Positions 1,318 to 49,455 of a DNA stretch of 49,455 bases are shown here, piece after piece. The notes beneath the pieces are model-generated. The model was given only the letters and a program-made list of their open reading frames with translations, did no database searches and was not told the origin of the DNA. The DNA lies in the IMG/VR virus record IMGVR_UViG_3300017722_002491, positions 1-49,455 of that record. One strand, given 5' to 3'. The translations under genes were made by a program, and so were the position numbers. The first letter of the stretch is position 1; the number at the start of each line of letters is the position of its first letter. Source of the DNA: a virus (taxonomy: Duplodnaviria; Caudoviricetes).

Positions 1318-1346
1318 TTGACGGATGGAATGGGCATGGCAATATC
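1318..1346 (+). promoter_or_regulatory. Sigma70-type promoter for the candidate ncRNA
   Basis: TTGACG (1318-1323) then TG-G-CAATAT extended -10; divergent from the 1296 promoter. Confidence 0.5.
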
Positions 1347-1351
1347 CGCTC

Positions 1352-1830
1352 AGTTCGCAGATCAAGAGCGATGCTAATCTCTTGGGAGTAATCCCGAAAC
1401 CGCGTTGTGCTTGATCCACAGCGCGGTTTTTCTTTGGCCTTATGTCTCGGCATACGCACAAAGAGCCAAGCGGCGACCTCGATAGATTGCACCAGCGTGA
1501 GGGGTGCATAAGCAAGAGCGGACAGCAACGATAGCCGCGCACAGGGGACGCACTCTAAAGGATGCGCGTGATAGCCTTGTGGTTGATAAATCGAGAAGGG
1601 TTCAATTCCTTTCATCTACCGTCATTCCTGCGCAAGCGGGAGAGTTCATGGACCAAGCCATTACCGGATGACCGAGTGGCGGGTGCTGACGAGTCTATGC
1701 GTCCTTCGGGACGGTGTTACGGAAACCTTAGCGGAATACCTCAGTCGGGCTGTTTCTTTCAACATTTCCAACTCATCTAGCAATAGGTGAGTTGTGCCCG
1801 TATTCCTATGCCGTGTTCCTCGACAGGCTA
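1352..1830 (+). ncRNA. Candidate large structured non-coding RNA
   Basis: No credible ORF. Hairpins with GUAA (1382-1397), GCAA (1626-1641, 1769-1794) and cUUCGg (1700-1713) loops, a tRNA-like T arm (1596-1612), long-range stem 1679-1686/1794-1801; G-U wobbles fit the + strand. Confidence 0.65.
1397..1435 (+). terminator. Terminator-like hairpin whose loop can pair with an upstream loop
   Basis: 13-bp stem AAACCGCGTTGTG/CACAGCGCGGTTT, loop CTTGATC, followed by TTCTTT. Confidence 0.6.
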
Positions 1831-1902: not shown

Positions 1903-1932
1903 TATTGACGTAATCGTTAAACCCCGTAAAAG
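1903..1932 (+). promoter_or_regulatory. Putative promoter
   Basis: TATTGACG then TAAAAG at 16-bp spacing, upstream of ATG 1945. Confidence 0.45.
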
Positions 1933-1944
1933 GTTAATGCGTAT

Positions 1945-2103
1945 ATGGGATTACCGTTTGACATTTTGACCGGGGATTTGACTGATGAGCAGTTGAATGA
2001 ACTGGCTGACGAGCAGATTCGGCGTGAGCGCGAGGATCGGTTTCTTGCTGCATTGGAGCAGGAACGTGAACAGCGTAACGCTGAACCTGTTTTTTCGATT
2101 TAA
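1945..2103 (+). CDS. Small acidic helical protein (52 aa)
   Basis: Below ORF-track cutoff: MGLPFDILTGDLTDEQLNELADEQIRREREDRFLAALEQEREQRNAEPVFSI*; ends 5 bp before the next ATG. Confidence 0.6.
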   Translation: MGLPFDILTGDLTDEQLNELADEQIRREREDRFLAALEQEREQRNAEPVFSI

Positions 2104-2108
2104 AGGTT

Positions 2109-2987
2109 ATGCCGTCACTTGCTGAAACGCAGGCGAAGGACAGCATCGGGCTTCCCCGATTCGAGGAACAGCGATGCGGGGCGATGGTGAATCATGTAAG
2201 GGATAAACGGCTGCTGGAATCGGAGCCGCCTGATTGCACGGGATGCGGTATTGTGATAGCGGGTGGAGGGAAATATCTGTCATGGAGTTGGGTGTTATGC
2301 CGGAGGATACGGGAATTGGGGTGCGAGTTGCCGATACAGGTGTGGCACATAGGAGAGAAGGAGATGCCAGTATGGGCCGCAAAGAGTTTTGCAGAGATGG
2401 GGGTAGAAACGGTCAACGTATTCAACGTCCTAAAGAAGCATCCGGTTCGGCATATGAGCGGCTGGGTGTTGAAGAATTACGCTGTCACGCATAGCCCTTG
2501 GCGTCATGTTATGTTCATAGATGCCGATTGCTTTCCCGTGGTGAAGCCGGAAACGATATTCCAGTTGTGCAAGGGCAAGACGTTATTTTTCAATGATGTG
2601 AAGCCGTGTCATCCGAGTCGCTGGGGATACACCTATTGCGGGTTGCTGCCGGAGATCGAGTGGGAAACCGGGCAGTTCATAGTGGACAAGGTTGAGGGAT
2701 GGATGGGGTTGCGGTGGACGGGCTGGTTGAATGAACACGCCGACACATGGTTCAATATGCTGCACGGCGACAAGGGCACGTTTGAGCTAGGTTTTCGGAT
2801 GAGCGGGGTTCCGCTGCTGATGGGGGATGCGCCAAGATGGGGTGGATTCGGTATCGCGCATAGCTATAAAGGGGTTGCCTGTTTCGAGCATTGCATGGCA
2901 ACCAAGAGAAACGAGCATCCTATGTTCCCGTGGATGAAGAATCTGTTTAAGGAATGGGATGCGGTGAGTCTAGGGAAGCAGAAATAG
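2109..2987 (+). CDS. Glycosyltransferase, alpha-mannosyltransferase (GT71/MNN2)-like GT-A fold
   Basis: GIVIAGGGKY, LPIQVW, GWxLKxYA, FIDAD (DxD), ETGQFIVDK, HGDKGTF motifs. Confidence 0.8.
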   Translation: MPSLAETQAKDSIGLPRFEEQRCGAMVNHVRDKRLLESEPPDCTGCGIVIAGGGKYLSWSWVLCRRIRELGCELPIQVWHIGEKEMPVWAAKSFAEMGVETVNVFNVLKKHPVRHMSGWVLKNYAVTHSPWRHVMFIDADCFPVVKPETIFQLCKGKTLFFNDVKPCHPSRWGYTYCGLLPEIEWETGQFIVDKVEGWMGLRWTGWLNEHADTWFNMLHGDKGTFELGFRMSGVPLLMGDAPRWGGFGIAHSYKGVACFEHCMATKRNEHPMFPWMKNLFKEWDAVSLGKQK

Positions 2988-4862
2988 CTACCGCCCGCTA
3001 TACACGCTCCGCTGCTGCACCCCGTATTTCCCTGCTGGTTGTCCCTTCTTCAAATAGTCCTCCGGGTTGAACGGCTTTGCTTCCCGCTTCTGCTCATACC
3101 CTGCAAGCCCGTTACGCATTGCCAGATGGATCAGCAGACAAGCGGCATCAGCGTGATCCGGCGAACGACGAATCCGTTCCTTCATGTCCTTCTTCCGCTC
3201 AATCGTCATGCGCTTTTTCTCGTCTGTGCCCATTTTGCGGGCGCATAGTTGCTTGGTGGCGTTTGATTGACTATTCATCCCTCCAACCGCCCTATTCATC
3301 ACCGCAAGACGGGTAGTGCCCCATATCTGACACACCATGTTGGCGAACATCTCGCGAGCCTTGCGCTTCTCGCCAGGAATCACGATACGGTTTTCAGCGA
3401 TGCCGGAGAACGAGATCGCGTGAACGGTGAGGCTGTAAGACTGCTCACGGGCTTCGCGCTCAATGTGCTGCAAAAGGATACCGCCGTCGCCCGTAACGTC
3501 CAAAGCGAGTTCGTGGCAGCTTCGGCTACGGCATTGCTCGATTACCAGCTTGGCGATCTGCACTTCAAAGGCTTCTTTCGATTGCTTCGGGACAAGCGGC
3601 ATCGCGTCACGCTCAAGTGAGATCATGCGCTTGTAACGGGCATCAATGTCGTCCTCATGCCTGCCGGAACCCATTTTACCAAACTGGATGACAGAAGGAT
3701 CGCCCCCTGCGCGGAAGCCAAGGTCAAGTCCTGCAAGGGTGGACAGGTTGTTGTCCTGCCAGTTGATTTTCTGGAATGCACCGCAAGACTCCATGAGTTT
3801 TCCCGTGAGAACCTTGTCCGACACATCCACGGAAGGAGGGAAACCATAGAATTGCTTCCAATACATCGGCGCGTCCTCGCCTCCTGCATCCGATAGAATC
3901 TCTTTACGGAAGTTCTCGTTCATCAAGCGCGGGAACGGCATCTTACCTTCCTCCTTGAAGTTTGGAGACTTCGCGCCATTGAAGTAAAGGCATAGACCGG
4001 ATGAAGTGGGCCAGCTATCCATCGTATCCTTGTCCAGCGATTTCCAGCCATCGGGATACTTGTCACCAAAAGGGGCGGCATCAATATACATAGGGTCGCC
4101 TTCTTCTGGCGCATTGCCGAGTCCGATGAACTGCGAGAACGGGTTCGTGTTCAAGTTTACGCGAGCCGTCAATACGCCAACGTCCATAAACGGAAACTCG
4201 TCACAAATCCAAATGACATTCTCGTTTTTACGTCCAACGATGGATGCGACTACATTCTTGCCCTCCTGCCCCGGCTTGATGTTGATGCATTTGATAACGT
4301 CCCTGAAGTCGCGCTCCTTCACCCCGTCATCATCGCGCACTTCTTCATCCAGCGTAATCAGGTGGAGGGAATCAATACGCTTGCCGATTTTAAACTTGTC
4401 AGCTTTGTGCAAATCTTTCACCGCACCCCATGTTCTCGATTCGCCTGCTTCCGCTGATGTGGTGGACAGGAATACGGATGTGTTGAAAGGTCGCGCCTTC
4501 CAGATTGTGTAGGCGTAGGCTGCTGATGCTTGGGTTTTGCCAGATGAGCCACAACCCATGAGCAGCAAACGGCGGGAGAAGCAGAACCCTTTTGCCATGC
4601 GGAACAGCCAGTGATTGAGGATGCCGTCATTCTCAAACTGGATCGTCTCCGGCCATTGCTGCATCCAGCATAGGATCAGGAACTCGTATTTGAGCGGGTG
4701 TTTGTGCGGGAGTGCGCCGAATGTCGCCAGCAGGATTTCGTATTCCGTCGCATCCCGCCCCTCCTGCCGCCGAACATCCGGCGACAGGAGTTGCATTTGC
4801 TCATCGTAGAGCGATTCAGCGGCGGCAGAAGGTCGCCAGAGCTTTGTGATGCACGGTATCAA
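2988..4862 (-). CDS. terL: Terminase large subunit
   Basis: Walker A MGCGSSGKT, Walker B WICDE, GLGN coupling motif, RNaseH-like nuclease GLDLG...GD, DVTGDG, SPDHADA. Confidence 0.9.
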   Translation of the reverse strand: MIPCITKLWRPSAAAESLYDEQMQLLSPDVRRQEGRDATEYEILLATFGALPHKHPLKYEFLILCWMQQWPETIQFENDGILNHWLFRMAKGFCFSRRLLLMGCGSSGKTQASAAYAYTIWKARPFNTSVFLSTTSAEAGESRTWGAVKDLHKADKFKIGKRIDSLHLITLDEEVRDDDGVKERDFRDVIKCINIKPGQEGKNVVASIVGRKNENVIWICDEFPFMDVGVLTARVNLNTNPFSQFIGLGNAPEEGDPMYIDAAPFGDKYPDGWKSLDKDTMDSWPTSSGLCLYFNGAKSPNFKEEGKMPFPRLMNENFRKEILSDAGGEDAPMYWKQFYGFPPSVDVSDKVLTGKLMESCGAFQKINWQDNNLSTLAGLDLGFRAGGDPSVIQFGKMGSGRHEDDIDARYKRMISLERDAMPLVPKQSKEAFEVQIAKLVIEQCRSRSCHELALDVTGDGGILLQHIEREAREQSYSLTVHAISFSGIAENRIVIPGEKRKAREMFANMVCQIWGTTRLAVMNRAVGGMNSQSNATKQLCARKMGTDEKKRMTIERKKDMKERIRRSPDHADAACLLIHLAMRNGLAGYEQKREAKPFNPEDYLKKGQPAGKYGVQQRSVYSGR

Positions 4863-6118: not shown

Positions 6119-6348
6119 GCAAGCTACCCACATACGAAGAAAAGCCGATCCCGACAAGGGTACCGATTACCAGCTTCGGGGAGATCATTGATCCGCGCCT
6201 TGCGCTAACACAGTGTAAAAGTGGATTCTCGTTTGTAGTGGATACGCACAAGTTTCGGCAGCGGGTTATCGCGTATGCTCGCAGACTTGGAATTGAAGTG
6301 AAAACCGCAAAGAACGGCACAGGGAGATTCGACATCTGGCGTATATGA
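6115..6348 (+). CDS. Small basic putative nucleic-acid-binding protein
   Basis: SF...A-RRLG...KT....G-F-IWR pattern common in small phage proteins; 4-bp overlaps on both sides. Confidence 0.65.
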   Translation: MSKLPTYEEKPIPTRVPITSFGEIIDPRLALTQCKSGFSFVVDTHKFRQRVIAYARRLGIEVKTAKNGTGRFDIWRI

Positions 6349-7172
6349 AAACCACTTGGACGCATAACCACTACAACCTTGGCGACAATATGCTGTTCCT
6401 GCATCTGTTGCGCTCGATTGCGAAGTCGCATCCCGATCATTGGTTCATCCATTTCTGCAACGGGTGTCACTTGGAGCCGCTACGCGACATGGTGCTGGAT
6501 TTACCGAACGTAATGCTCGATTCATTCGATGCAAGGTCGCTATGGGACAACATCAAGGACGTTTCGATTGATACATGGAAGAACGCTGGCGCGGGTGAAG
6601 GGAAGCTGGGGTTTTGGGAAAGAAGCAAGTTCCGTTGGGACTTCTCCAATTTCTATCTTGAGCATTACGAATGGACGGCAAAACGGATGGGCTTCAAGTC
6701 GCCATTTGCGATCAAGGAACATTTGTTGTTCGATTATCCGGGGTTGGAGTCGCCAGCCACAAGGAATGCGTTTGACTTTCTCATCATCAACTCGGAGCCA
6801 TGCAGCGGGCAATTCGGCCCAATGAAGCAACACGGCAGCGGGTATCTCGATGAGCTGATTCTCGACTTGGCAACAAGGCATCGCGTGATTACCACGAACA
6901 AGGTCGGTAATCTGCCATGCACCCGCGCACCTTTTGTCGCTAATCTAAGCGTCACGGAAATCGGGCAAATGTCATCGCGCTGCCAGCATCACCTTATGGT
7001 TGCATCCGGCCCTATGTGGCCCACTATTAACACGCACAACAATCACAACAGAAGCGGCAGGATGCGAATTGCGCTTCTGGACAACGGGGAGCAACTAAAT
7101 CTGCCGGAAATCTATCAATGCGCGACAGTGGATGAAGCGCGACAACTCTTATGCAGGGAAGGACTGTTATGA
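6345..7172 (+). CDS. GT9 (heptosyltransferase)-like GT-B glycosyltransferase
   Basis: N-terminal NLGDNM motif and C-terminal MVASGPMW resembling GT9 DSGPMH. Confidence 0.6.
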   Translation: MKTTWTHNHYNLGDNMLFLHLLRSIAKSHPDHWFIHFCNGCHLEPLRDMVLDLPNVMLDSFDARSLWDNIKDVSIDTWKNAGAGEGKLGFWERSKFRWDFSNFYLEHYEWTAKRMGFKSPFAIKEHLLFDYPGLESPATRNAFDFLIINSEPCSGQFGPMKQHGSGYLDELILDLATRHRVITTNKVGNLPCTRAPFVANLSVTEIGQMSSRCQHHLMVASGPMWPTINTHNNHNRSGRMRIALLDNGEQLNLPEIYQCATVDEARQLLCREGLL

Positions 7173-7696
7173 ATTACAAGGAATCGCTCACAAATCAGAT
7201 AAACTCGTTCGCCCGCGATCCGCTTGCCCGCTTTGTCGGCTACGGGCTGCTCAACGGAAAGGGGGGTAACGGCACGATGAAGGAAATCCCGAATGATAGG
7301 ATATTTGAAACAACGGTAGCCGAAAACCTGATGATGGGCATGGCAATGGGACTCGCGTTAAAGGGGCTTCGGCCAATGGTGATACTTGAGCGATTCGATT
7401 TCATCGGCAACTGCTTTGATGCGCTGGTCAATCATATTGATAAAGCGGCAATCATCAGCCGTGGTCAATGGACTCCCGGCGTAATCGTTCGCGTGGTAGT
7501 CGGGAATAGCCGGAAGCCTCTGTTTACGGGAGCAACTCACACACAGGACTTCACGGCAGCGTTTCGCAAGATACTTCGGATGCCAGTGTATCGGGTTACA
7601 ACGCCCGACGAGGTTGCTGCGGGATACGAGGCGGCAATTGCAGATCAGAAGCAGAATCGCAGCACGATGATCGTAGAACTGAAAGACAACCTGTAA
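7169..7696 (+). CDS. TPP-dependent E1-beta/transketolase pyrimidine-binding domain (stand-alone)
   Basis: ETTVAENLMMGMAMGLALKGLRP, RFDF, GATHTQD motifs; ATGA overlap at 7169; no C-terminal domain. Confidence 0.9.
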   Translation: MNYKESLTNQINSFARDPLARFVGYGLLNGKGGNGTMKEIPNDRIFETTVAENLMMGMAMGLALKGLRPMVILERFDFIGNCFDALVNHIDKAAIISRGQWTPGVIVRVVVGNSRKPLFTGATHTQDFTAAFRKILRMPVYRVTTPDEVAAGYEAAIADQKQNRSTMIVELKDNL

Positions 7697-8130
7697 TGGC
7701 AAACTTTGACGCAAATAGGTTCGCAAGCAAAAAGGTCGAATGGCCTACACCTGATAGCGTATTTGAGCCGCTTAACCGCGAGTTCGGATTCACGATTGAT
7801 GTATGTGCTACTTTGGAAAATGCTCGTTGCTTGAACTACTTCACCGAGGAAATGGACGGATTAAAGCAGGAGTGGAGCGGGGTATGCTGGATGAATCCGC
7901 CATACGGACGAAAGATGCTCGATTGGCTACGAAGGGCAGCAAAGGAACGCGACAACGGGGTTACTACGGTTGCCCTGATTCCGGCCAGAACAAATACGGG
8001 GTGGTGGCATGACATCGTAATGCCCAACGGGGAAGTGCGATTCGTGCGTGGTCGCCCTAAGTTCGGTGGTGCAGATCACGGGCTTCCGCAACCGCTTGCT
8101 ATTGTCGTATTCAGAAAAACCAACCCATGA
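7696..8130 (+). CDS. dam: Phage DNA N6-adenine methyltransferase (Dam family)
   Basis: WxTP, DVCA, DGL, WMNPPYG, LIPARTNTGWW motifs. Confidence 0.9.
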   Translation: MANFDANRFASKKVEWPTPDSVFEPLNREFGFTIDVCATLENARCLNYFTEEMDGLKQEWSGVCWMNPPYGRKMLDWLRRAAKERDNGVTTVALIPARTNTGWWHDIVMPNGEVRFVRGRPKFGGADHGLPQPLAIVVFRKTNP

Positions 8131-9173
8131 GCCACAAAGCCGCAATCCTGACACAACTGAACTCGCCCTTAGAGATATGGGACATTGAACACGCATCAAC
8201 GTCATTCGGCAAAACCTGCGCCACTGGACAGGTGCGCGTGGAAATGCTGATGAGCGGCATCTGCGGCAGCCAGCTACAAGAGATTGCAGGCAACAAGGGC
8301 AACGCCGGATTCATCCCTCACTTGTTAGGGCATGAGGGATGCGGGATTGTCCGCGAAGTCGGGGCTGGTGTTAATGTTCAACTCATCGGCAAGAAAGTCG
8401 TCTGCCACTGGCGCAAAGGCGAAGGCAGCGATGCCTATCTGACCGCTCGCTACGAGACAGGCGGCGGCAGAACCCTTGGCGGTGGTCACGTAACCACGCT
8501 CTGCGAATCAGCCGTGGTCAGCCGCAACCGTGTTACCGTGGTTGACGACGATGTGCCTATGGAGCTTTGCGCGTTGCTCGGATGCGGACTCAGCACGGCA
8601 CTAGGAACCGTGGAGCAGGAAGCCAAGTTGAAGTTTGGCGAGAGCATCCTGATCATCGGGTGCGGGGGTGTGGGGATGAATCTCATCCAAGCCGCAAAGC
8701 TGTCATGCGCCTTCCCGATTGTTGCCTGTGACGTTAATTTGGATAAAAAGTCAGCGGCAATGTATAATCAAGCTACCCATTATATCAACATCAGTGAACC
8801 ATTTGAACATCCAGTGGAGAAGTATGACGTAATCGTGGATACAACAGGCAACATCCAAGCAATCGAGGACGGGATACAGCGGCTCGCCAGCGGCGGCAGG
8901 TTCATCATGGTCGGACAACCGAAGCCGGGACAATCCTATCGCGTGTTGTCTGCTCTCGATATGTTCTTTGGCGAGGGCAAGACGATTATTGCTACGCAGG
9001 GCGGCGGGTTTCGACCGCATCTCGACATCCCGCGCTACGTGAATCTCTGGCGTTCGGGGTTGCTGGATTTGACGGGAACAATTTCGCACAAGTTGCCGCT
9101 GGAACAGATTAACGATGGAATAGACCTAGTTCGCAACGGATTGGCTGGTCGAGTAATGATTTCTCTGAAATGA
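8127..9173 (+). CDS. Zn-dependent medium-chain alcohol dehydrogenase/reductase
   Basis: GICGSQ, LGHEGCG, LGCGLSTA, Rossmann GCGGVG; lacks the 4-Cys structural Zn loop. Confidence 0.92.
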   Translation: MSHKAAILTQLNSPLEIWDIEHASTSFGKTCATGQVRVEMLMSGICGSQLQEIAGNKGNAGFIPHLLGHEGCGIVREVGAGVNVQLIGKKVVCHWRKGEGSDAYLTARYETGGGRTLGGGHVTTLCESAVVSRNRVTVVDDDVPMELCALLGCGLSTALGTVEQEAKLKFGESILIIGCGGVGMNLIQAAKLSCAFPIVACDVNLDKKSAAMYNQATHYINISEPFEHPVEKYDVIVDTTGNIQAIEDGIQRLASGGRFIMVGQPKPGQSYRVLSALDMFFGEGKTIIATQGGGFRPHLDIPRYVNLWRSGLLDLTGTISHKLPLEQINDGIDLVRNGLAGRVMISLK

Positions 9174-9649
9174 AAACAATACCGCTCACACAGGGGAAAG
9201 TTGCAATTGTGGATGACGAGGATTACGAGATATTAAACCAGTTCAAGTGGTATGCGGAAAGGCAAGGAAAGACATTCTACGCAAACAGGAAAGCTCCGCT
9301 ATCACAATCAAGAATTACAACCGTGATGCGCAGGGAAATCAGGATGCACAGGGAAATAATAAATCCGCCCACTGGTTTTTTCTGCGATCACAAAAACGGG
9401 GATGGCTTAGACAATCGCCGCGCTAATTTGCGCATTGTCACCAATGGACAGAATCAGTTGAATAAAGGGAAATACAAATCAAACACAACTGGCGCAAAAG
9501 GCGTTTTCATGGATCACGGAAAATACAGAGCCGAAATCAGGAAGGACGGAAAAAGAAAGTATCTTGGTATGTTCAAAACAGTAGAAGAAGCATCAGCCGC
9601 ATACCAAAAAGCAGCTAAAGAACTATTTGGAGAATACGCAAGAGCATGA
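9170..9649 (+). CDS. HNH endonuclease with C-terminal AP2 domain
   Basis: IPLTQGKVAIVDDED, MHR, DHKNGDGLDNRRANLR, KGV...YRAEI...YLG.F...EEA..AY; AT-rich relative to neighbours. Confidence 0.92.
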   Translation: MKTIPLTQGKVAIVDDEDYEILNQFKWYAERQGKTFYANRKAPLSQSRITTVMRREIRMHREIINPPTGFFCDHKNGDGLDNRRANLRIVTNGQNQLNKGKYKSNTTGAKGVFMDHGKYRAEIRKDGKRKYLGMFKTVEEASAAYQKAAKELFGEYARA

Positions 9650-10278
9650 ACTTACACACGAAAGAAAGTCTGATCGCTTTTGAAAACCGAATCAAGGGCT
9701 TATGGGAAGAAGGGGAACTGCCTTCCCTCCTGCACTTGTGCGGAGGTAACGAGGATGAACTGATCGAGATTTTCAAGCGCATCAATCACAACGATTGGGT
9801 ATTCACCAGCCACCGCGCACATTACCACTGTCTCCTAAAGGGGATGAGCGAGAAGCAGCTTGAGCAGGAGATACGCGAGGATCGTTCCATGTTCGTGTTC
9901 AGCAAAGAACTGAAAATCTATCAGTCGGCAATCCTTGGCGGCACTTGCGGCATTGCGGCTGGCGTTGCTGCCGGAATCAAGCGGGCAGGCGGGAATGAAC
10001 GGGTGTGGTGTTTCCTCGGTGACGGGGCATACGAGAACGGGCATCTGTTTGAGGCCGCGCTATACGTCACAGGCCATGAATTGCCATGCACCTTCATCAT
10101 CGAGAACAACAACAGACAGGTGGATACCAGCATTAAGGACAGGCGCGGGGATAACTCGCTTGCCTTCTCCATGAACGCGCCATGTGTCGAGGAATACTAC
10201 TACGATCCAACGTATCCCCATGCGGGTAGCGGTTGTAAATCCATCATCACTTTTAATCGAACCACGCCGCTACAATGA
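9646..10278 (+). CDS. TPP-dependent E1-alpha-like subunit (short)
   Basis: HLCGGNE, SHRAHYH, TPP motif GDG-x(~26)-ENN. Confidence 0.9.
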   Translation: MNLHTKESLIAFENRIKGLWEEGELPSLLHLCGGNEDELIEIFKRINHNDWVFTSHRAHYHCLLKGMSEKQLEQEIREDRSMFVFSKELKIYQSAILGGTCGIAAGVAAGIKRAGGNERVWCFLGDGAYENGHLFEAALYVTGHELPCTFIIENNNRQVDTSIKDRRGDNSLAFSMNAPCVEEYYYDPTYPHAGSGCKSIITFNRTTPLQ

Positions 10279-11174
10279 AAACGCTCATCGGGATAGTCTC
10301 ATACGGCAACCTGCCATTCCTGCAACTTGCTGTGCGCGGCATCAAGGAAACACTGACAAAGGATGCTGATATTTTGGTGGTAATAGCAAAGCCAGATGAT
10401 CATGCGATGGAGGAATGGCTGTCAGCCGGATTTATCAACTACATCCGAAACACCGAGAACATCGGGTTTGCCGGAAGCATCAACGACATTTTTGAGTATG
10501 CTTATTTCGCCAACCAATACGACAACGTGATCATCATGGGGAATGACGTTATTCCTTATCCCGGCGCACTAGATGCCATGATCAACTGCGCAGAAACAAC
10601 CGATTGGGAATGGATATGCGCCTCACAGTTTGACTCAAAATCCCTTGTAGCCCGCTACCCCGAATCCGCGCAATACTTCAAGGGCAACACGCTAGAGTTC
10701 ACAGACTTTGACGCAAGACCGTGGGAACTGCACAAGGAAATCCATGCACCGAACATTGAGCCGGATTCGCTGAAAGACGTTCGCAATCTCGCGCTGTTTA
10801 AGCGAAGCGTATTCGATAAGACGGGATACGCCGATGTGAACTTCTGGCCGAACGCATATTTTGAGGATAACGATGCCGCGAGACGTGCGAACCTATGCGG
10901 GGTGAAGGCGTGCGGACTCAGCGAGGCAGCATACTTTCATTTTTGGAGCCGCACCATCCATCAGGGCGAGAATCGGCAGCACTCCAGATATTTTGAGCGC
11001 AACCTTGCTCACTACATCCACAAATGGGGCGGGGCGGTTGGCGGTGAAAGCTATTCACAGCTTTATGACGGCAGGGGTTTTCGGTTGTCACCCGATATCT
11101 TTCTCGCGCCTGACATGAGGATCGCATCACGGGAGCAGGAGCAAGCGATTATTCAGTATTGGTCAACGCTATGA
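10275..11174 (+). CDS. GT2-family glycosyltransferase
   Basis: IGIVSY, ENIGFAGSIN, MGNDV, FDKTGYAD..F..AYFEDND, FHFWSRT. Confidence 0.88.
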   Translation: MKTLIGIVSYGNLPFLQLAVRGIKETLTKDADILVVIAKPDDHAMEEWLSAGFINYIRNTENIGFAGSINDIFEYAYFANQYDNVIIMGNDVIPYPGALDAMINCAETTDWEWICASQFDSKSLVARYPESAQYFKGNTLEFTDFDARPWELHKEIHAPNIEPDSLKDVRNLALFKRSVFDKTGYADVNFWPNAYFEDNDAARRANLCGVKACGLSEAAYFHFWSRTIHQGENRQHSRYFERNLAHYIHKWGGAVGGESYSQLYDGRGFRLSPDIFLAPDMRIASREQEQAIIQYWSTL

Positions 11175-11797
11175 TCCCGAAAATCATACATCAAATCTGG
11201 ATTGGGAATAAAGTGATTCCAGACAGGGAGTTCACTTGGGTTGCTCAAATGAACGAGATGAACAGGTCGTCTTGGATTCATAGATACCACGGCAACGAAC
11301 TACTGGAACGCTACGGGCAAGACCCCTTCATCAAATACATGGTCGCTAAAAAAGAGCGCATAGCCTTCATCACGGATCGCCTGCGCGTGCTGCTGCTTCA
11401 AGAGGAAGGCGGCATCTACGTGGATGTGGACAGCCAGCCGATACGCCTTTTTGATTCGATTGACGTATGGAATCGGTATGACTTCGTAGCTGGGTTGCGC
11501 TCGCCATTCCGCAAAGACGTAGCACTTCATCGCGCCGTCCCGATTGTGGACAACACCCTCATGGCATCCGTTCCAAACGGCAGGATGATAGGGATTATTG
11601 CCGCTCTGTGGACTCCTGCGCAAATCACTTCTGCCAACCACGCGATTAACGGTCATAGGACAGGGCTTGCAATTATCGAGAACTGCGATTACACGACTTG
11701 TTTGCTTAACCATCGTTACATATATTGCGAGCAAAAATATCCCGAAACACTGATATTACACGACACGCACAACCTTGGAACATGGGCAAAAAACTGA
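11171..11797 (+). CDS. GT32 (OCH1-like) DxD glycosyltransferase
   Basis: MIPKIIHQIWIG, DRLRVLLL...GGIYVDVD; ATGA overlap at 11171. Confidence 0.9.
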   Translation: MIPKIIHQIWIGNKVIPDREFTWVAQMNEMNRSSWIHRYHGNELLERYGQDPFIKYMVAKKERIAFITDRLRVLLLQEEGGIYVDVDSQPIRLFDSIDVWNRYDFVAGLRSPFRKDVALHRAVPIVDNTLMASVPNGRMIGIIAALWTPAQITSANHAINGHRTGLAIIENCDYTTCLLNHRYIYCEQKYPETLILHDTHNLGTWAKN

Positions 11798-14873: not shown

Positions 14874-15287
14874 ATGCTACAAGAAATTGCAGTTCAACTA
14901 AGATTCCTCCAACTTTTTACGCACAACGCGCACAACCTAATCTCAGGAGTCACGTTCCTTGCGGATCACAAGTTTTTTGGAAAACTGTATCCTATTTACG
15001 AAGCTGCTTACGATAAAATCGTAGAACGAGCTATCGGAACAGATAAGGAAATTGATCTATCAACCGTAGCCATGAATGCAGCAGAAATGGTTGAGAAGAT
15101 GGAAGAAGATAATACTTCCGAAGATTGGTTCTACGCAATTCTCGCAGGCGAACAAGGGCTGTGCGGCATGGTTGAGAAATGCTTCAAAGAATCGAAGAAA
15201 TACAGTCAAGGAACCTTGAACCTTCTAGCTCAGGTTTGCGACGACTCCGAAGCACGCCAATACAAAATGCAACAACGCCTAAAATGA
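14874..15287 (+). CDS. Dps/ferritin-like four-helix protein
   Basis: H-x-x-H-x-x-x-x-G-x-x-F-x-x-x-H-x-x-F-x-x-LY-x6-D-x-x-x-ER Dps-like signature. Confidence 0.8.
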   Translation: MLQEIAVQLRFLQLFTHNAHNLISGVTFLADHKFFGKLYPIYEAAYDKIVERAIGTDKEIDLSTVAMNAAEMVEKMEEDNTSEDWFYAILAGEQGLCGMVEKCFKESKKYSQGTLNLLAQVCDDSEARQYKMQQRLK

Positions 15288-27107: not shown

Positions 27108-27637
27108 AAAAGCCTTTCATCATTCTAGCCATGCCTCGCTCGATGACAGCGTGGACTTCCTGTTTCCTGACAATCGGCAACGTGTTTTGTCAGCATGAGA
27201 TTCTTCGCAAGGACAGGCGCACGGATATTGCGGTTCAATCTATTCTCGGTCAGCCCTACAAGTATAGCGGGGCAGCGTGTCCAGGGTCGCTGATGGTGTG
27301 GCAGGAGTTGGTTCATCGGATGCCCAATGCCAATTACATCTACATTCGCCGCTCTCCGGCACAGTCATTAAAGTCGTTGGCAAAGGTTGCGGGAGTTCCA
27401 GTGGAGATGATGGAGGAAGGATATGAAGGGCTGAATCAGAAGGCGCGGGAGTTTATGCAATTCGTGGAGCCAAAGGTCATAGACTTCGCAGAACTCGCTA
27501 CGATGAAGGGGATGCGGAAGTTGTGGAATTGGGTCTGCCCCGAAGAACATTTGCCGGATCAACATTTAGTCAAGATGCACTCGCTGCATATCGAACAACG
27601 AAAGGAAATCATTCATGCACAAGTATTGGGAAAATAA
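27104..27637 (+). CDS. Sulfotransferase-like P-loop protein
   Basis: FIILAMPRSMTAW (PRSGT-like 5'-PSB loop), CQHE, YIRRSP...LKSL (3'-PB-like). Confidence 0.65.
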   Translation: MKKPFIILAMPRSMTAWTSCFLTIGNVFCQHEILRKDRRTDIAVQSILGQPYKYSGAACPGSLMVWQELVHRMPNANYIYIRRSPAQSLKSLAKVAGVPVEMMEEGYEGLNQKAREFMQFVEPKVIDFAELATMKGMRKLWNWVCPEEHLPDQHLVKMHSLHIEQRKEIIHAQVLGK

Positions 27638-28166
27638 CAAATCACTCACTGAACCCGAAATGCGCCTGCTCGGTGCGCTTTATCATGCTCACGCGCAATG
27701 CGTGTTTCGTGAAAACTGCTCCACGATGGCACTTCAACAGGCGGCTTTTGGTAGTCGTGATGTGGTCAATAGCTACATCGCTGCACTCGCAACGCTTGGC
27801 GAGGTTCACGGGCCGATTGTTGAGGCTTACAAGGTCTTGACGGGTGAGCGAACCAACGGCGACAGGGTTGCAGGTTTTGGAAACAGCTTCATCAAGGGTG
27901 AGCCAGATGCCGCATTTGCCAAGGTGCATGAATTGCTGAAAGAGCAAGCACCGCATCTCGTTGATCGGATTGAAAAGATTCAAGAGAACTTACTGCTTTC
28001 GGGGAAGAACCTGTTCCCGAATCCAGCGTGTTACACAGCGGCGGTTGCTCTTTCACTTGGGATGCCCGCAATCGTCGCTCCTTCTTTATTCGTGCAAGCG
28101 CGTATCGAGCCTTGGTCGGTTCTCTTTTATCAAGTCGTAAAACCAGACGTGAAGGAGGAAACGTAA
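27615..28166 (+). CDS. Truncated, divergent citrate-synthase-fold protein
   Basis: NCST, AALATLGEVHG, VAGFGN, FPNPA, LFVQARIEPW in citrate-synthase motif order. Confidence 0.75.
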   Translation: MHKYWENNKSLTEPEMRLLGALYHAHAQCVFRENCSTMALQQAAFGSRDVVNSYIAALATLGEVHGPIVEAYKVLTGERTNGDRVAGFGNSFIKGEPDAAFAKVHELLKEQAPHLVDRIEKIQENLLLSGKNLFPNPACYTAAVALSLGMPAIVAPSLFVQARIEPWSVLFYQVVKPDVKEET

Positions 28167-30490: not shown

Positions 30491-33400
30491 ATGGGATCGC
30501 AAATCACTGAACTTCCGCCTATCGAAGATTACGAAAAGGCGTTTTCCGATAATTCAGAATCCGTTGATTTACCTCCATTAGAGGACTACGAGAAGGCGTT
30601 CTCGGATACATCTTCCGCGCCAAAGGCCGAACCGAAGGATGAAACTATTCTCTCCGGCTCACTCAGCGGAAGCACCCCGATACCAGCGGAACCGAAGCCC
30701 GATCCAATGGCTGATACATCGGCTGGCGATTACGCGCAGTCGTTGAGCGATTCATTAAAGCAGCCAGCGAACATGGCGGATACGGCGATGCAGGGATACG
30801 AGGATGCCCCTGCATACAACATGAGCGGAATAGGGATGCCTGCCAGATTCGTGCCACAAGGTAGCGTTCTTAGAAATGACAAGATGCGCCAAGCCGCGCT
30901 TCTCGATGTTAAGAAAGCGCGGGAATCACTTTATCTTCGTATGCAAGAGATTGGCGTTGCGGACTACCCCGCTCCGGCTGGCGAGGAATTGGATCGGCGC
31001 ATCACACAGCAAGACAAGTCAGGGGGCGACATTTTCAAAAACGCGCAGGAGCAAGCATCCATTAAGCGCGGGCTGGATAGTAACTATGAGTTGAAGTATG
31101 GATTGCAGCCAAGGGACTTAGCGGCAGAGGCGATTGCCGATGAGAAGGAGTTGGCGGCAGCACGGCTTCAACAGTCAGATAATGTTTCCGCAATAAAGGA
31201 CAACGAAAGCGAGATATACGCGATTGAGCAGCAGTTGAAAGAGCCGGGAATATCCGATGACTTGAAGAAGTCACTTAATCTCAAGCGCGGTGCGCTGGTC
31301 GCTGCTGATGCGCAGAAAACACGGAATCTGGAATCACTTTACAAGAGTCAGGAAGAACAAGTCCCCGGAAGCGCGGAATGGATGAGCAAGCAGCGCGAGA
31401 TTGATGTGGAGCATGAGAAGCTAGGCGCGAACTCTGCGTTGTCGGGTGTGCTTTCATTCACTTCATCCCTCAACAAGCAGATTCTCGGCATCTACGATGT
31501 CGCTTCAAAAGCACTTGGTCACGATGTAAGCCAAGACAACCTGCATGAGTGGATGCTTGGTCAAGCCATGATGCAGGGAACGTATGCCAATGTTAATCCT
31601 ACTGCGCTTGCTGACTTCGCAAGGGGCGTTGGTGGCGCGTCTGCGCTGATTATTGGCCCTAGTAAGCTGGGTAAGATTGCCAGCATTACTCAGATGAGCG
31701 TTCGCGCTATGGCTGAAAGCTACAAGACTGCCAAGATGCAAGGTGCATCCGAAAACGAGGCAGCGGCAATCGGCGGACATACTGCACTCGACTTGGCTGC
31801 GTTCATGGTTGGAGGAAAAGCCCTTGGTGGGCTGATGTCAAAATGGATTGCTCCAATGGCGAATCCGGTTGCGCGTGGAGCGGGGTCGCTTGCAACACAG
31901 ATGGCGGCGAACAGCGCAATGAGCGCAAGCCTGCGTGCCGTTAATGGGGGTGAATGGATGCCGACAGCGGGAGAGTTCGGGGCAGACCTTGCGTTTGCGG
32001 GGCATCACGCCGTTGCCGACTACTCAAACAGCGTCAAGTTCGTTCAGCAGAAAAAGCAGATGACGACAACCCGCGATGCGATGTTTCTGAGCGGGCTGGA
32101 TAAAGTGAATGTGAATGGGGAATCCGTTCATCTTGCGACTTATTCGGACATCGTGAAAGAGGGGAAGCGCAGGTTCGATGAACTGAATCAGAAGGACAAG
32201 CTCACTCCCGCAGAGGAAGCAGAGAAGAAACGGCTGGCGTTTATCGCGTCTGATCAGTTTGAGAGAAAGCATATCGAAGATGTTGCCCGTGCTGCCGGAA
32301 TTATGCCTGTCGAGGAAACAACTGCCAAAGAGTTTTCTGCCGACATGGAGAAACACAAGGCGTTGCTGCGCGACAAGGTTCTCGGCCCTGTTATCACCAA
32401 CGAGAAGGGGGAGCAGGTTCGTGATAAGGATCGGGCAGATGCCACGGACAAGGAGAGGCGGGCGTATGAGCTATTGAACGATCCCAACACAACGCTTGCA
32501 GAAAAAGCTGCTGCATTTGGGCAGAAACTCACAGACCACGATTACGGCGCAGAGACGGAGACTGCGCCTGAGAGTCAGGCAGGGATGAAGCAGGAGCCGA
32601 TTGATATAAACATCGAGCCGGGGCGGAGGTATAGCAATTACGGAGACATTAACCTTGAGCCTATTGATGGAACGAACAAGCCAGCCGCCGCTGCCGCTCC
32701 CCCTGCGCCAGCCGCACCAACAGCAGAACCAACCGCGCCCACATCGCCACTCCATGAAGCAGGAGCAAGCCAAAGACTCTCGGCAATCGAAGTAACGACA
32801 AAAACCGTAACTGCAACAGGTAGTAGCGGTGGCTCCACGACATTCGCAACCGAGGCGGAAGCAGCGCAACACATAGCCCAACAACGCGCCAAAAATCCAA
32901 ATATAGTCATCACCGTTAAAGGGATGGATCAGGTTGGGTTAAACAAAGCAGAGGTAGCAAAAGCGGTAGAACGACTAAACACTCAACCCGCACCCGCAAA
33001 ACCTTCATCCGTGGGTCAGCCTGTTCCCGCTACCGCGCAGCCTTACAGCAAAGAGGCGTTGCAGAAAACGCTCAACCTGACAGCAGAGAAAGCCGAATCT
33101 TTGCATATCATAGTGCAGGCTATGGGGCTGGATGAGTCGAGGCTTACATTCGATTCCACTAGAAGCGGGGTAATGCTTTATCAAAAAGGTGGAGACAACA
33201 AAATTGATGCTCAGATTTATTTTGAAAACGGGAAAGCAGTCATTGAGGGATTCAAAAGTTCTAATGTATCAAGCGGGGCGCATGAGATTTTTCACGCAGC
33301 TAGGAGGCAGCTTTTCGACAGAAACATACCAGCAGAAAACCGCGAGGGAATCACGGATGAAGATGTAGCCATAGCCGAGAAATGGGCTGGTGTTAAAGAC

Positions 33401-36400
33401 GGAAAATGGAGCGTAGCAGCCGAGGAAAAGTTTGCCCGTGGAGGCGAAAGATACCTTGCAACAGGAGAAGCCCCATCCCCGGAACTTGCGGCGGTGTTTG
33501 GGAAGTTCAAGAACTGGCTGTTGAAGATTTACAAGGGTATCTCCGGCAGCGCGATTGACATCAAAATCTCGCCTGAGATGAAGAAGGTGTTCGATAGATT
33601 GCTCACCCGCTCAGAGCGACTAAAGGGCGAAGGAGAGAAGCCAGCACCCGTTGAGTCGAAAAAGCCAGCACCCGAAAAATCCGACATCTCAGAGCATCAA
33701 CGGGAAATCGAGACAGCGATGAAGCCGGATCATCTGGCTATCCTTAAATCCGCCAACGAGAAGCTGGCGCGTGGGGAGCCATTGACGGAAATCGAGCAGG
33801 GGATGAGGGATTCCGTGGAGCGGCAGTTGCTCGATAAAGGGGATGTGCTTAGGCAGGAGTCGCCACTTACGCCAGAGGAAAAGGCCAAGAGGGATGAAAA
33901 TGATGCCGCCTACGCGAAAGCGGCGGAAGCTGGCGACACGGAGACGGCGCAACGCATGGTGGATGAGGCGGCGAATAATGAAGGTCTAAAAATCTTGTTT
34001 CATAAAACCGAAGGAAAGTTTGATGAGTTTGATCCGTCAATAGGGGAGGGCGGGACGCACCTAGCAACAACAGAGAGGCAACTTGATAATTTACGTGGAA
34101 ACAAAGGAAAAACAATGCGACTTGCTGTTCGCATAGATAATCCAATCCGTATAAATGACGGGAATTACAACAGCCTTCGCTCCCTATGGATTCAAGCCGT
34201 AGATGCGGGTAAGCTGAAAGCCGGAAATTACATTGGTAGCCAACAAGACATTCTACAAAGACTTCGCACAGAAATGCGAAAAAAAGGTTATGATGGATTT
34301 GTCTATGAGAACATCCACGAAGGTCACGGAGACTCGTATATCTCTCTTGAGCCATCGCGGATAAAATCTGCCGAGACTATTGTTGAAAAGAACGGTAAAG
34401 TGATTCCGCTATCTGAGCGGTTCAATCAGGAATCCACAAATATACTGCGTCAAGAATCGCCACTTACGCCAGCCGAGCTGCGGGCGCAGCAGGAAAGCGA
34501 CTCAAGCGGATTAAACGCCGAAATTGTGGACAGCATGAAGAAGGACGTTGTTAAGGCGCAGGCGGAAAAGGGCGGCGACATAAAGACATCCAGAGATAAG
34601 TGGGTTCTGAGTGAGTTGAAGAAAAAGAAGGGGATGTCGGATGCTGAATACAGCGATTACAAGGACAAGCTGAACGCTGCTTACGATGCCGAGGTATCGG
34701 CGCAGGAACTCCCATCAATTCCTAAGTCTGAATCTATCAAAGGGCAGCGCGACAACATTCGCGGTTATGTAGCCATTCGACTGCGAAACTTTGAAGCCGA
34801 CAACGCTGATTTGATTGAGAAATCTCCCGATGCGGCTAAGGCCGAATGGAAGAAATTGATCATGCGCGAGATCAATGAATCCGGTGCAGCGAAGAAACTT
34901 ACTTCCGGTCAAATAGAACACGCTGCAAACGAGGCTTGGAATCTAGGCAGGGACACAAAGGGGAAGCGCAGGGCTTCATCTGATGATGCTTTTCCGACAG
35001 AGGGAACAATCTCAGAAGCCATACAGAGCATGGGCGGCATTAGCTCCAAAGACAAAGCTCCGGCGGGAATTGCGGCGGCTCATCTTTCCAAGCTATACGG
35101 CGGCGAGGGGGCTGATTCTGCTGATTTAGTAGCATCGGCATTGAAAGACCGACTACCAAAGGGTTCGCTCGGAACTGCCGAGGAATTATGGGATGCGATT
35201 AAACGCGAAAGCGATTCGCATTTAAGGATGAAGGCGCAGGCATCACAGGCGAAAGCCGAATATGATACTGCCGTTAAGTTTAGAAAGTTTGTGCGAGAAA
35301 ATGCGATTCAAGATATTCCCGGTCTGATACCAGCCCGCATATCAACCGACATGATCGGCGCAAAGGTTGTCGTGGACGGTGAGCCGATGGAAGTTACGGT
35401 TAATGCTAATGGCGATTTCGTCCTCAAAAGCGGAAAAGATTTTGACGGGCAGGGCAAGTTCGGGACGCAGCGCGTAGAGGAAGGCGAATACGTCTATATT
35501 GAAAGGGTTCTCTCCATGCCCGGAGAGGGCGACGGCAGGGCTACCAGCGCAACCAATAATGCCGTGATGAAAGCACTAGCGGCTATTGGTGCGCCGGACG
35601 TTGAGCTTGGGCCGAAGGTTAGCGATGCAGAAATTTGGAGTCGAGCGAAAGCGGAACTCGCCTTGAACCCAAGGGCTGCCGATGAGCTTGTTACGCGGAT
35701 CAATAGTCCGAAAGAACCCGGTTCTCTCGTTCTATCTACCCATCAACAGGCGTTGCTTCTCTACAAGCACATTCAACTACAAGTTGAGATAGAGCCTGTT
35801 AATGCCGAATGGGTGGAGGCTATGTCTGTGAAAGAGGGAACTCCGCTTACCGCTGCAATGCGTGAAAGGAATGAGATATTGAGCGGAAAGCGAGAGGACT
35901 TGCAGCGCAGATTGTTTGAGTTTGCCAAGGCCAATGCCGCCATTGGTAGCGAAGCGGGAAGGGCTTTACGCTTCCGTCGCGTGATGGCTGATTACAGTTT
36001 CAGTTCTTCCTCTGTGCAGGCGCAGATGATGGAGAATCTTGGTCGCCCGCTTACAGAGGACGAGATCAAGGACTCAATCCGGCTGACGGGACAACTTGAC
36101 GGGCTGAACCGGCAGTTGGAGGAACATCGTGGTCAGATAGTCGAGAGGCTGGTTGATGCTGGCGCAAGGGATGCGTTCGACATGATGAAAACCGAGATGA
36201 CGTTGGGCGGGGCATTGGGCAGCATTTTCAAGAGCGGCAACAAGAAGGCGTTGTCGGGGATTTTTAGCGCAATGAGAAATGAGGCGCAGGCGACTTTCAG
36301 AGAGTGGTCGGCAGCGAGCAAGAAAAGGTTCAACGAAATAGACTCGCTCGCTGTTGAACTTGATCTGGAAGCAATGCCGTCAAACAAGCTGCAACAGGCG

Positions 36401-42189: not shown

Positions 42190-42230
42190 ATGCAATCGCA
42201 ACTGTCTATCCCTGATTCAGTTAAAAACAA

Positions 42231-42284
42231 TGTTCAACTTTGTTCAACAATCCACTTGAACTCACGACAAATCTCACATACAAG
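42231..42284 (+). promoter_or_regulatory. Initiator-gene promoter overlapped by iteron copies
   Basis: TGTTCAA at 42231 and 42241; TTGAAC(42256)-17-TACAAG(42279), 7 nt before ATG 42292. Confidence 0.55.
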
Positions 42285-42291
42285 ACGCTCT

Positions 42292-43149
42292 ATGTTCGCC
42301 AAAGTTTTCTCTCAAATCTTCGATTCCTCCATAGCTGAAAGCCATACAGTCAGGCATATCTTTATGGACTTGCTGGTTCTGGCCGATGCAACGGGAGTAG
42401 TGGATATGACGATGCACGCTATATCCAGACGCATCAATGTTCCGCTGGAAGATGTTCGTGCGGCAATCGAGAAGCTGGCAAGCCCTGATCCGCTGTCGCG
42501 CTCGGAGCGAGAAGAAGGGCGCAGGATTGTCTTGATTGACTCACATCGGGATTGGGGCTGGCAGATTGTGAACTACGAGCATTACCGCAAAACACAGGAC
42601 GAAGATGCTCGCCGCTCTTATTTCCGAGATTACCGCAAGGCTGAAAGAGACAAGAAGCGTGCAACCCTGTTCAATGATGTTCAAGTCGGTTCAACCGTGT
42701 TCAATAAAGTCACACAGGAAGAAGGAGATGTAGAGGTAGAGGAAGAAGAACAAGAAAAGAAGAAGTCGGCTACGCCTCCTGCAACTCGCAAGCCCGCTAT
42801 GCTTCTTGATGCAGATTGGATTACTGGACTGCAACGGATGGATGCTTATCGCGGCATCAACATTCCCGCTGAACTGCAAAAGGCTCAAGTTTGGTGTGAA
42901 GCGAAGCGTCGTAAATGCTCCCGTCCTTTCTTTGTGAATTGGATCAATCGTGCGTGCGCGGATCGCGCAGTTGTCGCGTCTCCTGCTATCAAGCCTCAGA
43001 AATCCCGTGGTCAATGTATCGGTGAAGCGGGACAACGCTATGCCCTGTTGGAGAATTACAACGATTGGCCGAAACGCGCTGACGGCAGCAACCAGACACC
43101 CGATGAAGTTGGGGATGCCGATTGGAAGAAACAACTACCTGCGCTATGA
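42292..43149 (+). CDS. Replication initiator protein (lambda O-like organisation)
   Basis: N-terminal wHTH-type MFAKVFSQIFDSSI...W.IVNY.HYR, low-complexity linker, C-terminal F..NW..RA domain; upstream of DnaB. Confidence 0.75.
   Translation: MFAKVFSQIFDSSIAESHTVRHIFMDLLVLADATGVVDMTMHAISRRINVPLEDVRAAIEKLASPDPLSRSEREEGRRIVLIDSHRDWGWQIVNYEHYRKTQDEDARRSYFRDYRKAERDKKRATLFNDVQVGSTVFNKVTQEEGDVEVEEEEQEKKKSATPPATRKPAMLLDADWITGLQRMDAYRGINIPAELQKAQVWCEAKRRKCSRPFFVNWINRACADRAVVASPAIKPQKSRGQCIGEAGQRYALLENYNDWPKRADGSNQTPDEVGDADWKKQLPAL
42668..42704 (+). repeat. Iteron-like array, putative replication origin
   Basis: (T/G)GTTCAA x4 at an exact 10-bp period (42668, 42678, 42688, 42698), followed by a purine-rich tract. 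Confidence 0.7.
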
Positions 43150-49349: not shown

Positions 49350-49455
49350 TGCTGGAGGTGCTGGAGGTGCTGGAGGTGCTGGAGGTGCTGGAGGTGCTGG
49401 AGGTGCTGGAGGTGCTGGAGGTGCTGGAGGTGCTGGAGGTGCTGGAGGTGCTGGA
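49350..49455. repeat. Perfect 9-bp tandem repeat (TGCTGGAGG), ~11.8 copies, running off the window
   Basis: Directly visible; reads (PAP)n on the minus strand. Confidence 0.97.

Follow-up and report, generated by a model that had tools for sequence, protein, structure and literature searches.

Genomic setting of the non-coding region

The stretch of DNA that we analyzed (hereafter, the window) is the full 49,455 bases of a virus contig that was detected in freshwater runs. The 50 window proteins that we scanned include DnaB, an Enc34-type ssDNA-binding protein, an exonuclease, an endolysin and tail-fibre-like proteins, with no integrase or repressor family among them. We read the minus-strand ORF at 2988-4862 as the large terminase on the basis of its motifs and of weak atlas leads (Terminase_6N, 16% of one cluster); searches of Pfam, PHROGs and PDB with this ORF gave no match. 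DnaB is less than 30% identical to its counterparts in cultured phages and adjoins a replisome-organiser-like gene (42190-43149; a lead only). The host search gave a single genome match for the terminase, on a 3.3-kb contig, and no host was found. The record begins and ends in short tandem repeats (12-nt units at 1-55, 9-nt units at 49396-49455), which points to assembly breaks in repeats and does not show circularity. Elsewhere, a cluster at 6345-11797 encodes transketolase/dehydrogenase-E1 halves, a Zn-dehydrogenase, a Dam methylase and several glycosyltransferases, and is likely a sugar-modification pathway for DNA or virion. ORFs resembling the citrate-synthase C-terminus (27615-28166, E 9e-9) and Dps/ferritin (14874-15287) lie among structural genes, and a 3101-aa ORF (30491-39796) has no Pfam or PHROG match.

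The region of interest sits where small leftward genes diverge from a rightward unit. It is a ~490-nt non-coding stretch, described here on the plus strand, which we divide into module 1 (1352-1435) and module 2, a multi-hairpin body (1436-1838). As a sequence-only reading of this DNA had proposed, the gap is poor in ORFs, with 5-8 stops in each of the six frames across the RNA. C-rich CCTGC repeats lie directly 3' of the RNA (1847-1894), with more copies in the related locus L035. A second promoter-like site (1905-1933, plus strand) falls in the conserved right flank of the site that the RNA occupies (the slot) and forms the RNA boundary, outside the RNA itself; it would serve the downstream genes, a 52-aa ORF (1945-2103, plus strand) and a glycosyltransferase (2109-2987, plus strand; Pfam PF11051).

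Ahead of module 1 lies a likely sigma-70-type promoter (1318-1345, plus strand), with a -35 hexamer TTGACG (1318-1323) and an extended -10 element TG-n-CAATAT (1337-1345), from which the transcript would start at A1352. The TTGACG motif had been named earlier as the promoter of the RNA; it is present and conserved in relatives, but a consensus promoter scan did not call it, and our assignment rests on conservation because the site is kept in all slot relatives. Two more distant loci, L012 and L153, have other hexamers at similar spacing before the same AG[AU]UCGC start, and seven alleles begin with this word 26-31 nt past a TTG hexamer (L009, with the same module as L004, is among the first eight alleles extracted). 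In the promoter scan, neither a site within the body nor a convergent promoter turned up, and when 10 whole viral records were searched for the promoter pattern, the matched words revealed no new RNA on inspection.

Two other sequence features touch this promoter. A 15-nt inverted repeat (87%) links its spacer (1321-1335) to the start of a 37-codon leftward ORF (1148-1162) and is a possible operator pair. The word CCCGCC has copies between the -35 and -10 elements of the RNA promoter in L012, L153 and L197. Across the whole L197 locus it is found 23 times against 6.0 expected (0 of 200 shuffles), 19 times on one strand, and CCCGCC-rich stretches also occur in L012 (19600-20750) and L153 (350-1200); an operator, a Chi-like sequence and a replication signal are candidates for its identity.

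Structure and strand bias of the region

All of the hairpins that had been named earlier, together with both enclosing stems, were recovered at their positions. The 12 helices that we checked (seven from the earlier reading and five added) contain 73 Watson-Crick pairs, 12 G-U pairs, no A-C pairs and no other mismatches, a tally that is circular because the helices were chosen as paired on the plus strand. An unbiased count over inverted repeats bears out the earlier claim that the wobbles reflect plus-strand selection at the RNA level: the ratio of G-U to A-C was 11:5 in the window RNA and 49:22 when pooled over six partly related alleles, compared with 3.6:3.7 per tile elsewhere in the genome. 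The region holds 13 hairpins against a tile mean of 5.7, and at least 13 were counted in 3 of 96 tiles.

Folding energies point the same way. The plus strand of the whole region folded better than shuffled sequence by a modest amount (z -2.38; 3 of 100 shuffles as good) and the minus strand did not (z -0.59; 28 of 100). The signal is located in 1352-1436 (z -3.93) and 1712-1838 (z -2.63); folding of 1570-1650 (z -0.89) and 1650-1720 (z -0.52) is unremarkable.

Palindromes of a DNA-level element, such as a replication origin or packaging signal, could resemble such hairpins. The related locus L199 has, at the RNA-equivalent site (2200-2800, minus strand), a stretch that by eye looks origin-like, with direct repeats and an AT palindrome, and the C-rich repeats after the RNA would also suit a DNA signal. 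Since G-U pairs are tolerated on the plus strand only and the replisome-organiser-like gene lies elsewhere, beside DnaB, we consider a DNA-level element very unlikely.

Two modules exchanged separately between phages

A search with the terminase recovered 19 loci, 4 of which span the slot and are the same phage; six non-identical slot-spanning relatives have 96-97% terminase identity. In five of these six, the match to the window ends at 1359 and resumes at 1827 (1896 in L009), with no blastn match to 1360-1826, and the sixth, L007, keeps the body at 99% identity behind another first module. Promoter scans of viral and metagenome contigs gave 10 and 7 loci and added L035, L036 and L038. In L012 (78% terminase identity), a tRNA-Met occupies the slot and the RNA lies 8.6 kb away, divergent from an XRE-HTH operon. 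L197 was reached through an HTH protein, and L153 through a motif common to the window and L012. L153 carries a full-length homolog at another site in another phage, aligned over nt 1-487 (nhmmer E 1.8e-17) with compensatory changes.

The bodies fall into four types: A (window, L007), B (L012, L153), C (L004, L035, L197) and D (L009, L036). First modules do not track these types. The first module of L036 is found ahead of type D in L036 itself and ahead of type B in L012, and a window-like first module precedes type A in the window and type B in L153. The two modules are swapped separately among near-identical phages, with promoter and flanks kept. The earlier reading had treated the region as a single ~480-nt RNA; what we find instead is a terminator-containing 5' switch and a body that reassort separately between phages. 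Colinear words suggest that types C and D share ancestry with types A and B. A covariance model built on the type-C core found types A and B at the right place and strand with weak scores (E 0.17-1.7) and missed type D; the bodies are thus not established as a single family.

Independent homologs are few. No meaningful blastn match was found among INPHARED phages and PLSDB plasmids, and of the 88, 7 and 44 loci returned by GTDB pattern scans, none was homologous by nhmmer, blastn or inspection; a recurring Acidobacteria match was set aside, since it resembles a coding sequence on the opposite strand and matches no Rfam model. Viral pattern scans returned 11 loci (5 known, 6 chance), 6 loci (all known), 10 loci (one new homolog, L153) and 28 loci (6 known, 22 chance). 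One RNA run (X24) contained a small share of the words, and its assembled contigs cover coding genes too, so the contigs cannot show expression.

Other elements occupy or border the slot in relatives. A tRNA gene is at the slot site in 3 of 13 related loci scanned (tRNA-Met in L011 and L012, tRNA-Pro in L015). In L199, a tRNA match that passes gathering (4571-4671, plus strand) has an unusually long central portion. Two HNH endonuclease genes flank the type-C body of L197 (1109-1651 and 1998-2783, minus strand), the second beginning on the final base of the conserved 3' motif; a search for homologs of the HNH protein gave five proteins, without context.

Compensatory change and organization of the body

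Pairs were predicted from one member alone and then scored in seven pairwise tests (two sequences each, without phylogenetic correction). On the plus strand, 18 pairs were changed on both sides, 22 on one side and 19 were broken, against 45.6 expected to break. The minus strand gave 17 double and 3 single changes with 31 broken pairs against 32.4 expected. The strongest single test compared L004 with L197 (5 double changes; 9 broken, 19.6 expected), and three of the seven had too few changes to be informative. These alignments indicate that the helices covary on the plus strand only and that the body is selected as RNA. The compensatory changes agree with the earlier proposal of a large structured RNA; the hairpins are real, the region is under RNA-level selection on the plus strand, and it comprises two modules rather than one.

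The body opens with a hairpin (1431-1474) that takes up the end of the module 1 U tract and is followed by a GCG word, an arrangement conserved with L153. On read-through, the 5' end, once freed, is predicted to base-pair with this GCG word; in 5 of 6 alleles, all but the window, nt 1-8 find their best partner just after the first body hairpin. The variable middle (1475-1700) holds a T-arm-like hairpin (1596-1612) and a GCAA hairpin (1626-1641), and its GCGCAAGC hairpin recurs in body types B and C. It lies outside the covariation test because its sole copy, in L007, is 99% identical. The conserved 3' part (1711-1838) aligns with L153 and contains ACGGAAACC (1719-1727), CGGGCU (1746-1751), a long hairpin (1769-1794) and an end motif (1824-1838). 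Compared with L153, seven of its pairs changed on both sides, four on one side and four were broken against 8.9 expected, with all seven double changes falling within one loosely aligned hairpin.

The T-arm-like hairpin had been taken for a tRNA-type T arm. It occurs in the body type of the window alone and is absent from types B and C. The surrounding region (1579-1619) combines a T-loop hairpin with an acceptor-like stem pairing at 6 of 7 positions and no CCA (mascRNA model E 5.8). We rejected a tRNA-like element, given the missing CCA end, the lack of conservation of the T arm in homologs and a negative ARAGORN result.

No conserved reading frame was found in the body, and a 72-aa plus-strand ORF (1562-1780) is broken by a TAG in L007, in keeping with the earlier reading of the region as non-coding. 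The window, L004, L012 and L153 have no ORF coupled to the body. A ~100-codon ORF follows the type-D body in L009 and L036 and runs to the downstream promoter-like site. The structure could instead be a by-product of an unrecognised minus-strand protein gene: in L012 and L153 one minus-strand frame is fully open across the RNA, with an ATGA overlap with the preceding gene. This open frame in type B, however, has a pN/pS of 1.14 (7 synonymous, 24 non-synonymous changes) against 0.21, 0.34 and 0.50 in three neighbouring genes, and the type-B RNA region differs at 31 of ~400 sites where three neighbouring genes differ at 19-33%. There was no significant Pfam match, and the stops in every frame already largely refute such a gene for the window. 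We regard it as extremely improbable.

A predicted terminator/antiterminator switch in module 1

Module 1 contains a feature that the sequence-only reading had missed, an intrinsic terminator (1398-1435) positioned 50-85 nt into the proposed RNA. Its stem (1398-1409/1417-1428) closes a loop, CUUGAUC (1410-1416), which opens with a YUNR word, ahead of a U tract (1427-1435), and a terminator scan marks 1404-1427 plus the T run. In the minimum free energy (MFE) fold of 1352-1436, a 5' hairpin, P1 (1355-1371; UCGC/GCGA), displays the leader loop GAUCAAG (1360-1366). Between the two lies a spacer hairpin with a GNRA loop, P2 (1382-1397). The antiterminator strand (1360-1374) is predicted to pair with 1402-1416, the 5' arm and loop of the terminator. 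Compared with L153, P1, whose stem is weak, is invariant at 4 of 4 pairs. P2 has three double changes, two single changes and no broken pair, with its loop changed from GUAA to GGAA, and the terminator has two double changes, three single changes and none broken. Over the whole of module 1, 55 of 55 cells are paired in this comparison, with five double changes (22 of 500 shuffles were as high, and slid controls were 32-46% paired).

The leader is complementary to the terminator loop and arm, and this complementarity survives five changes of the pairing sequence. The leader and loop read GAUCAAG/CUUGAUC in the window, GGUCAAG/CUUGACC in L153, GUCGAG/CUCGAC in L007, GAAUCAG/CUGAUUC in L004 and L035, and AUGUCGAG/CUCGACAU in L036 and L012. 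Pairing is kept in 7 of 8 alleles with five different sequences, not more, since L035 and L012 repeat those of L004 and L036; the five make three cross-pairing groups. The complementarity spans 11-17 pairs and extends beyond the loop into one arm of the terminator, and therefore the two folds are mutually exclusive. Shuffled leaders reached the cognate duplex in 61 (window), 43, 4, 0, 0, 0 and 0 of 2000 cases in seven alleles. In L197, a type-C body lies behind a 5' module without this pairing (1310 of 2000 shuffles), with the +1 position chosen by eye.

In 7 of 8 alleles, the two folds lie within about 1-6 kcal/mol of each other. Mutually exclusive helices of similar energy, both conserved, are thus found in those seven, as in an attenuator, and the terminator covaries; as the leader-loop pairing is kept across them, we read module 1 as a predicted terminator/antiterminator switch. 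In the window, the antiterminator fold has -28.7 kcal/mol against -31.5 with the terminator forced, and becomes the MFE while the 3' arm of the terminator is held unpaired. Across alleles, with the 3' arm still in the polymerase, 4 of 6 intermediates have the leader-terminator helix as their MFE fold. With the U tract held unpaired, the predicted probability of the terminator was 1.0 in the window and L153, 0.65 in L007, 0.0 in L004, 0.16 in L036 and 0.21 in L012; with the leader blocked, it was 1.0 in all six. In the window and L153, equilibrium wholly favours the terminator, and read-through there would therefore rest on kinetics.

This dominance of the terminator fold in the window and L153 also suits an account with no switch, in which module 1 is a constitutively terminated ~85-nt RNA with a fixed kissing contact between leader and terminator loop, inside a single molecule or from copy to copy, and the body is separate, reached by leakage or from its own start. 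Separate reassortment of the modules and the L197 body without a window-type first module would fit this as well, and GOLLD, ROOL and OLE assemblies are held together by kissing loops (PMC12286853). Several features argue for the switch instead: complementarity of 11-17 pairs that reaches into the terminator arm past the loop, overlap of the first body hairpin with the U tract, the preferred partner of nt 1-8 just past that hairpin in 5 of 6 alleles, and the absence of any promoter site inside the body in the promoter scan. We consider the account without a switch possible but doubtful.

All five terminator loops carry a YUNR word, a motif that may, as a U-turn, provide the scaffold on which loops first make contact (PMC7430163). 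When the short RNA was cofolded with the leader, the cognate pair was preferred in 4 of 6 rows, the window and L153 not among them, and the terminator arm and loop were engaged only in L004; action in trans is not supported by this modelling, which cannot represent kissing loops. The loop sequence has no standout second target elsewhere in the genome. A model of module 1 gave no match in five whole records, including that of L005, a weak null because the model also misses the L005 allele among the known loci.

Comparison with known RNAs

None of the 4227 Rfam models scanned (MISL was not confirmed among these) matched the window at gathering. At E<=10, matches for 1150-2050 and 1430-1845 were at chance level (best ncS01, E 0.58), and scans of the alleles at E cut-offs of 5 and 2 gave nothing above chance. 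A sar match in the alleles (E 0.017) was rejected as the terminator hairpin read on the other strand. ARAGORN found no tmRNA or tRNA in the window, and no Rfam or ARAGORN match to tmRNA, RNase P, group I or II introns or self-cleaving ribozymes was above threshold; the one tmRNA match, in L033, fell below threshold (12.9 bits against 47, E 0.074) and covers the T-arm-like part. The MISL motif, which the earlier reading had named as an RNA of Verrucomicrobiota, is a large RNA of many hairpins, and the likeness is limited to that general idea; the link drew no support, with no Rfam match and no description of MISL found in the searches made, the motif being mentioned 0 times in the main text of PMC5737381.

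The closest comparison is with GOLLD (which we take to be RF02032) and ROOL, and our best reading is an attenuator-gated large phage ncRNA that is like them in kind but not a member. It shares with them a large size, many hairpins, lack of ORFs and presence in a phage. GOLLD and ROOL often lie near tRNA genes; here some relatives keep a tRNA gene at the slot (the 3 of 13 loci above), and the window itself has none. The body has a conserved 3' part and a variable region, as does GOLLD, with its conserved 3' and variable 5' regions (PMC12286853). Kissing loops and A-minor contacts join GOLLD and ROOL into multimers made of RNA only. Unlike these RNAs, it is ~490 nt, compared with 659 for a ROOL example and often >800 for GOLLD, and carries a predicted 5' internal terminator/antiterminator. 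GOLLD and ROOL models are absent from the E<=10 matches of the window regions and from the allele matches.

A ribozyme or mobile-element RNA (intron-like or a nuclease guide) spread by HNH endonucleases would account for the L197 body lying between two HNH genes, as homing would explain sharp module swaps. A few words by eye resemble what we presume to be group I and RNase P elements. The RNA interrupts no gene, however, an HNH gene is adjacent in 1 of 8 alleles, and group I, group II, RNase P and self-cleaving ribozyme models gave no match (E cut-offs of 10 for the window, 5 and 2 for the alleles), which makes this identity quite unlikely. By-eye likenesses to hammerhead, group I (permuted or not), RNase P, T-box and c-di-GMP-I had rested on short consensus words and were dropped.

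The switch as predicted resembles Salmonella Gifsy-1 IsrK, P4 seqA/CI and P1/P7 c4 in that one promoter would give a short terminated and a read-through RNA with two alternative folds; sequence-specific self recognition is plausible. If the locus belonged to such systems of RNA immunity or attenuation of protein genes, the body would be a long leader and the output a downstream protein. Cassette exchange is typical of immunity regions, and some bodies are followed by an ORF (an HNH ORF right at the body end in L197; ORFs in L009 and L036). The short terminated form of IsrK acts in trans on the read-through form (PMC4825925), and c4 underlies P1/P7 heteroimmunity (PMC12197685). Those RNAs, however, control translation of orf45-anrP, or of ant and replication genes, whereas most alleles here lack a coupled ORF; the hallmark of c4, CI and IsrK is a coupled icd/kil/ant or orf45-anrP ORF with a second target at its ribosome-binding site, and the window, L004, L012 and L153 have no coupled ORF. 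The leader here pairs with the terminator loop within the first 85-110 nt, with no sequence or model match to these RNAs (no c4 or IsrK-type Rfam match), and there is no standout second loop target in the genome. The window's next genes have their own promoter-like site, and the 50 proteins scanned include no integrase or repressor family. RNA-based immunity or attenuation with a downstream protein as its output is thus unlikely.

In the attenuators of plasmids pT181 and pIP501, an antisense RNA from the opposite strand drives attenuation and controls a Rep protein. They share with module 1 a terminator/antiterminator leader with a YUNR loop; they differ in that we found no convergent promoter and that the output here would be RNA. 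A pIP501 U-turn loop is named in a title in the reference list of PMC7430163. We found no earlier description of a switch-plus-body architecture in the literature searched, which included bioRxiv 10.64898/2026.10.21.760802 and outside which most subscription papers lie. Five contig ids are absent from six supplementary files of PMC10690425 (files 1, 2 and 4 lay outside this comparison). Parts of this RNA may already be present, as unnamed candidates, in such large RNA catalogues.

Discussion

The locus is a real, uncatalogued phage RNA unit: a likely attenuator ahead of a large structured RNA, both exchanged as cassettes. With moderate confidence, we propose that it is a two-module plus-strand unit in which transcription starts at 1352, passes an 85-nt terminator/antiterminator switch and, on read-through, continues to ~1838 as a large folded RNA. 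The promoter would start the transcript at 1352. The terminator fold of the first 85 nt would then yield a short RNA, and the antiterminator fold would let polymerase run on to ~1838. If the terminator loop is captured by the leader on emerging from the polymerase, transcription would pass the terminator by default or partially, and masking of the leader loop by any agent would force termination. The masking agent that we favour, purely as a hypothesis, is accumulated short RNA, which would act by way of the U-turn in its terminator loop. Alternatives are a protein, a pause or simply fixed leakage. Under the trigger that we favour, the long RNA could be made briefly at an early stage and then end its own synthesis, and a resident phage whose pairing sequence belongs to the same group could likewise silence it, a proposal that we hold tentatively and doubt more than we credit.

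Because a coupled ORF is missing from four alleles, the long RNA likely functions in folded form, perhaps as a decoy or scaffold (compare GOLLD and ROOL), rather than as an mRNA leader. The position of the L197 body between two HNH genes may explain how cassettes move. A further step is speculative and in our judgment doubtful: a novel kind of all-RNA control circuit in which a short RNA reads a swappable nascent loop and silences a large RNA of catalytic or scaffold type, providing protein-free timing and self/non-self recognition.

GOLLD and ROOL have no known function, and this RNA brings a built-in handle in its predicted switch and natural variants. Several natural bodies occur in near-identical phage backgrounds, and their comparison can show which parts carry function; short templates suffice for in-tube tests of termination, trigger and specificity. 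Natural terminator switches keyed by short loop sequences are also possible RNA regulatory parts. A large RNA that is regulated by an attenuator and kept in several versions per population likely brings a gain in conflict with hosts or other phages and, if the full proposal is true, these phages would carry an all-RNA circuit whose switch and payload are traded between them as separate cassettes.
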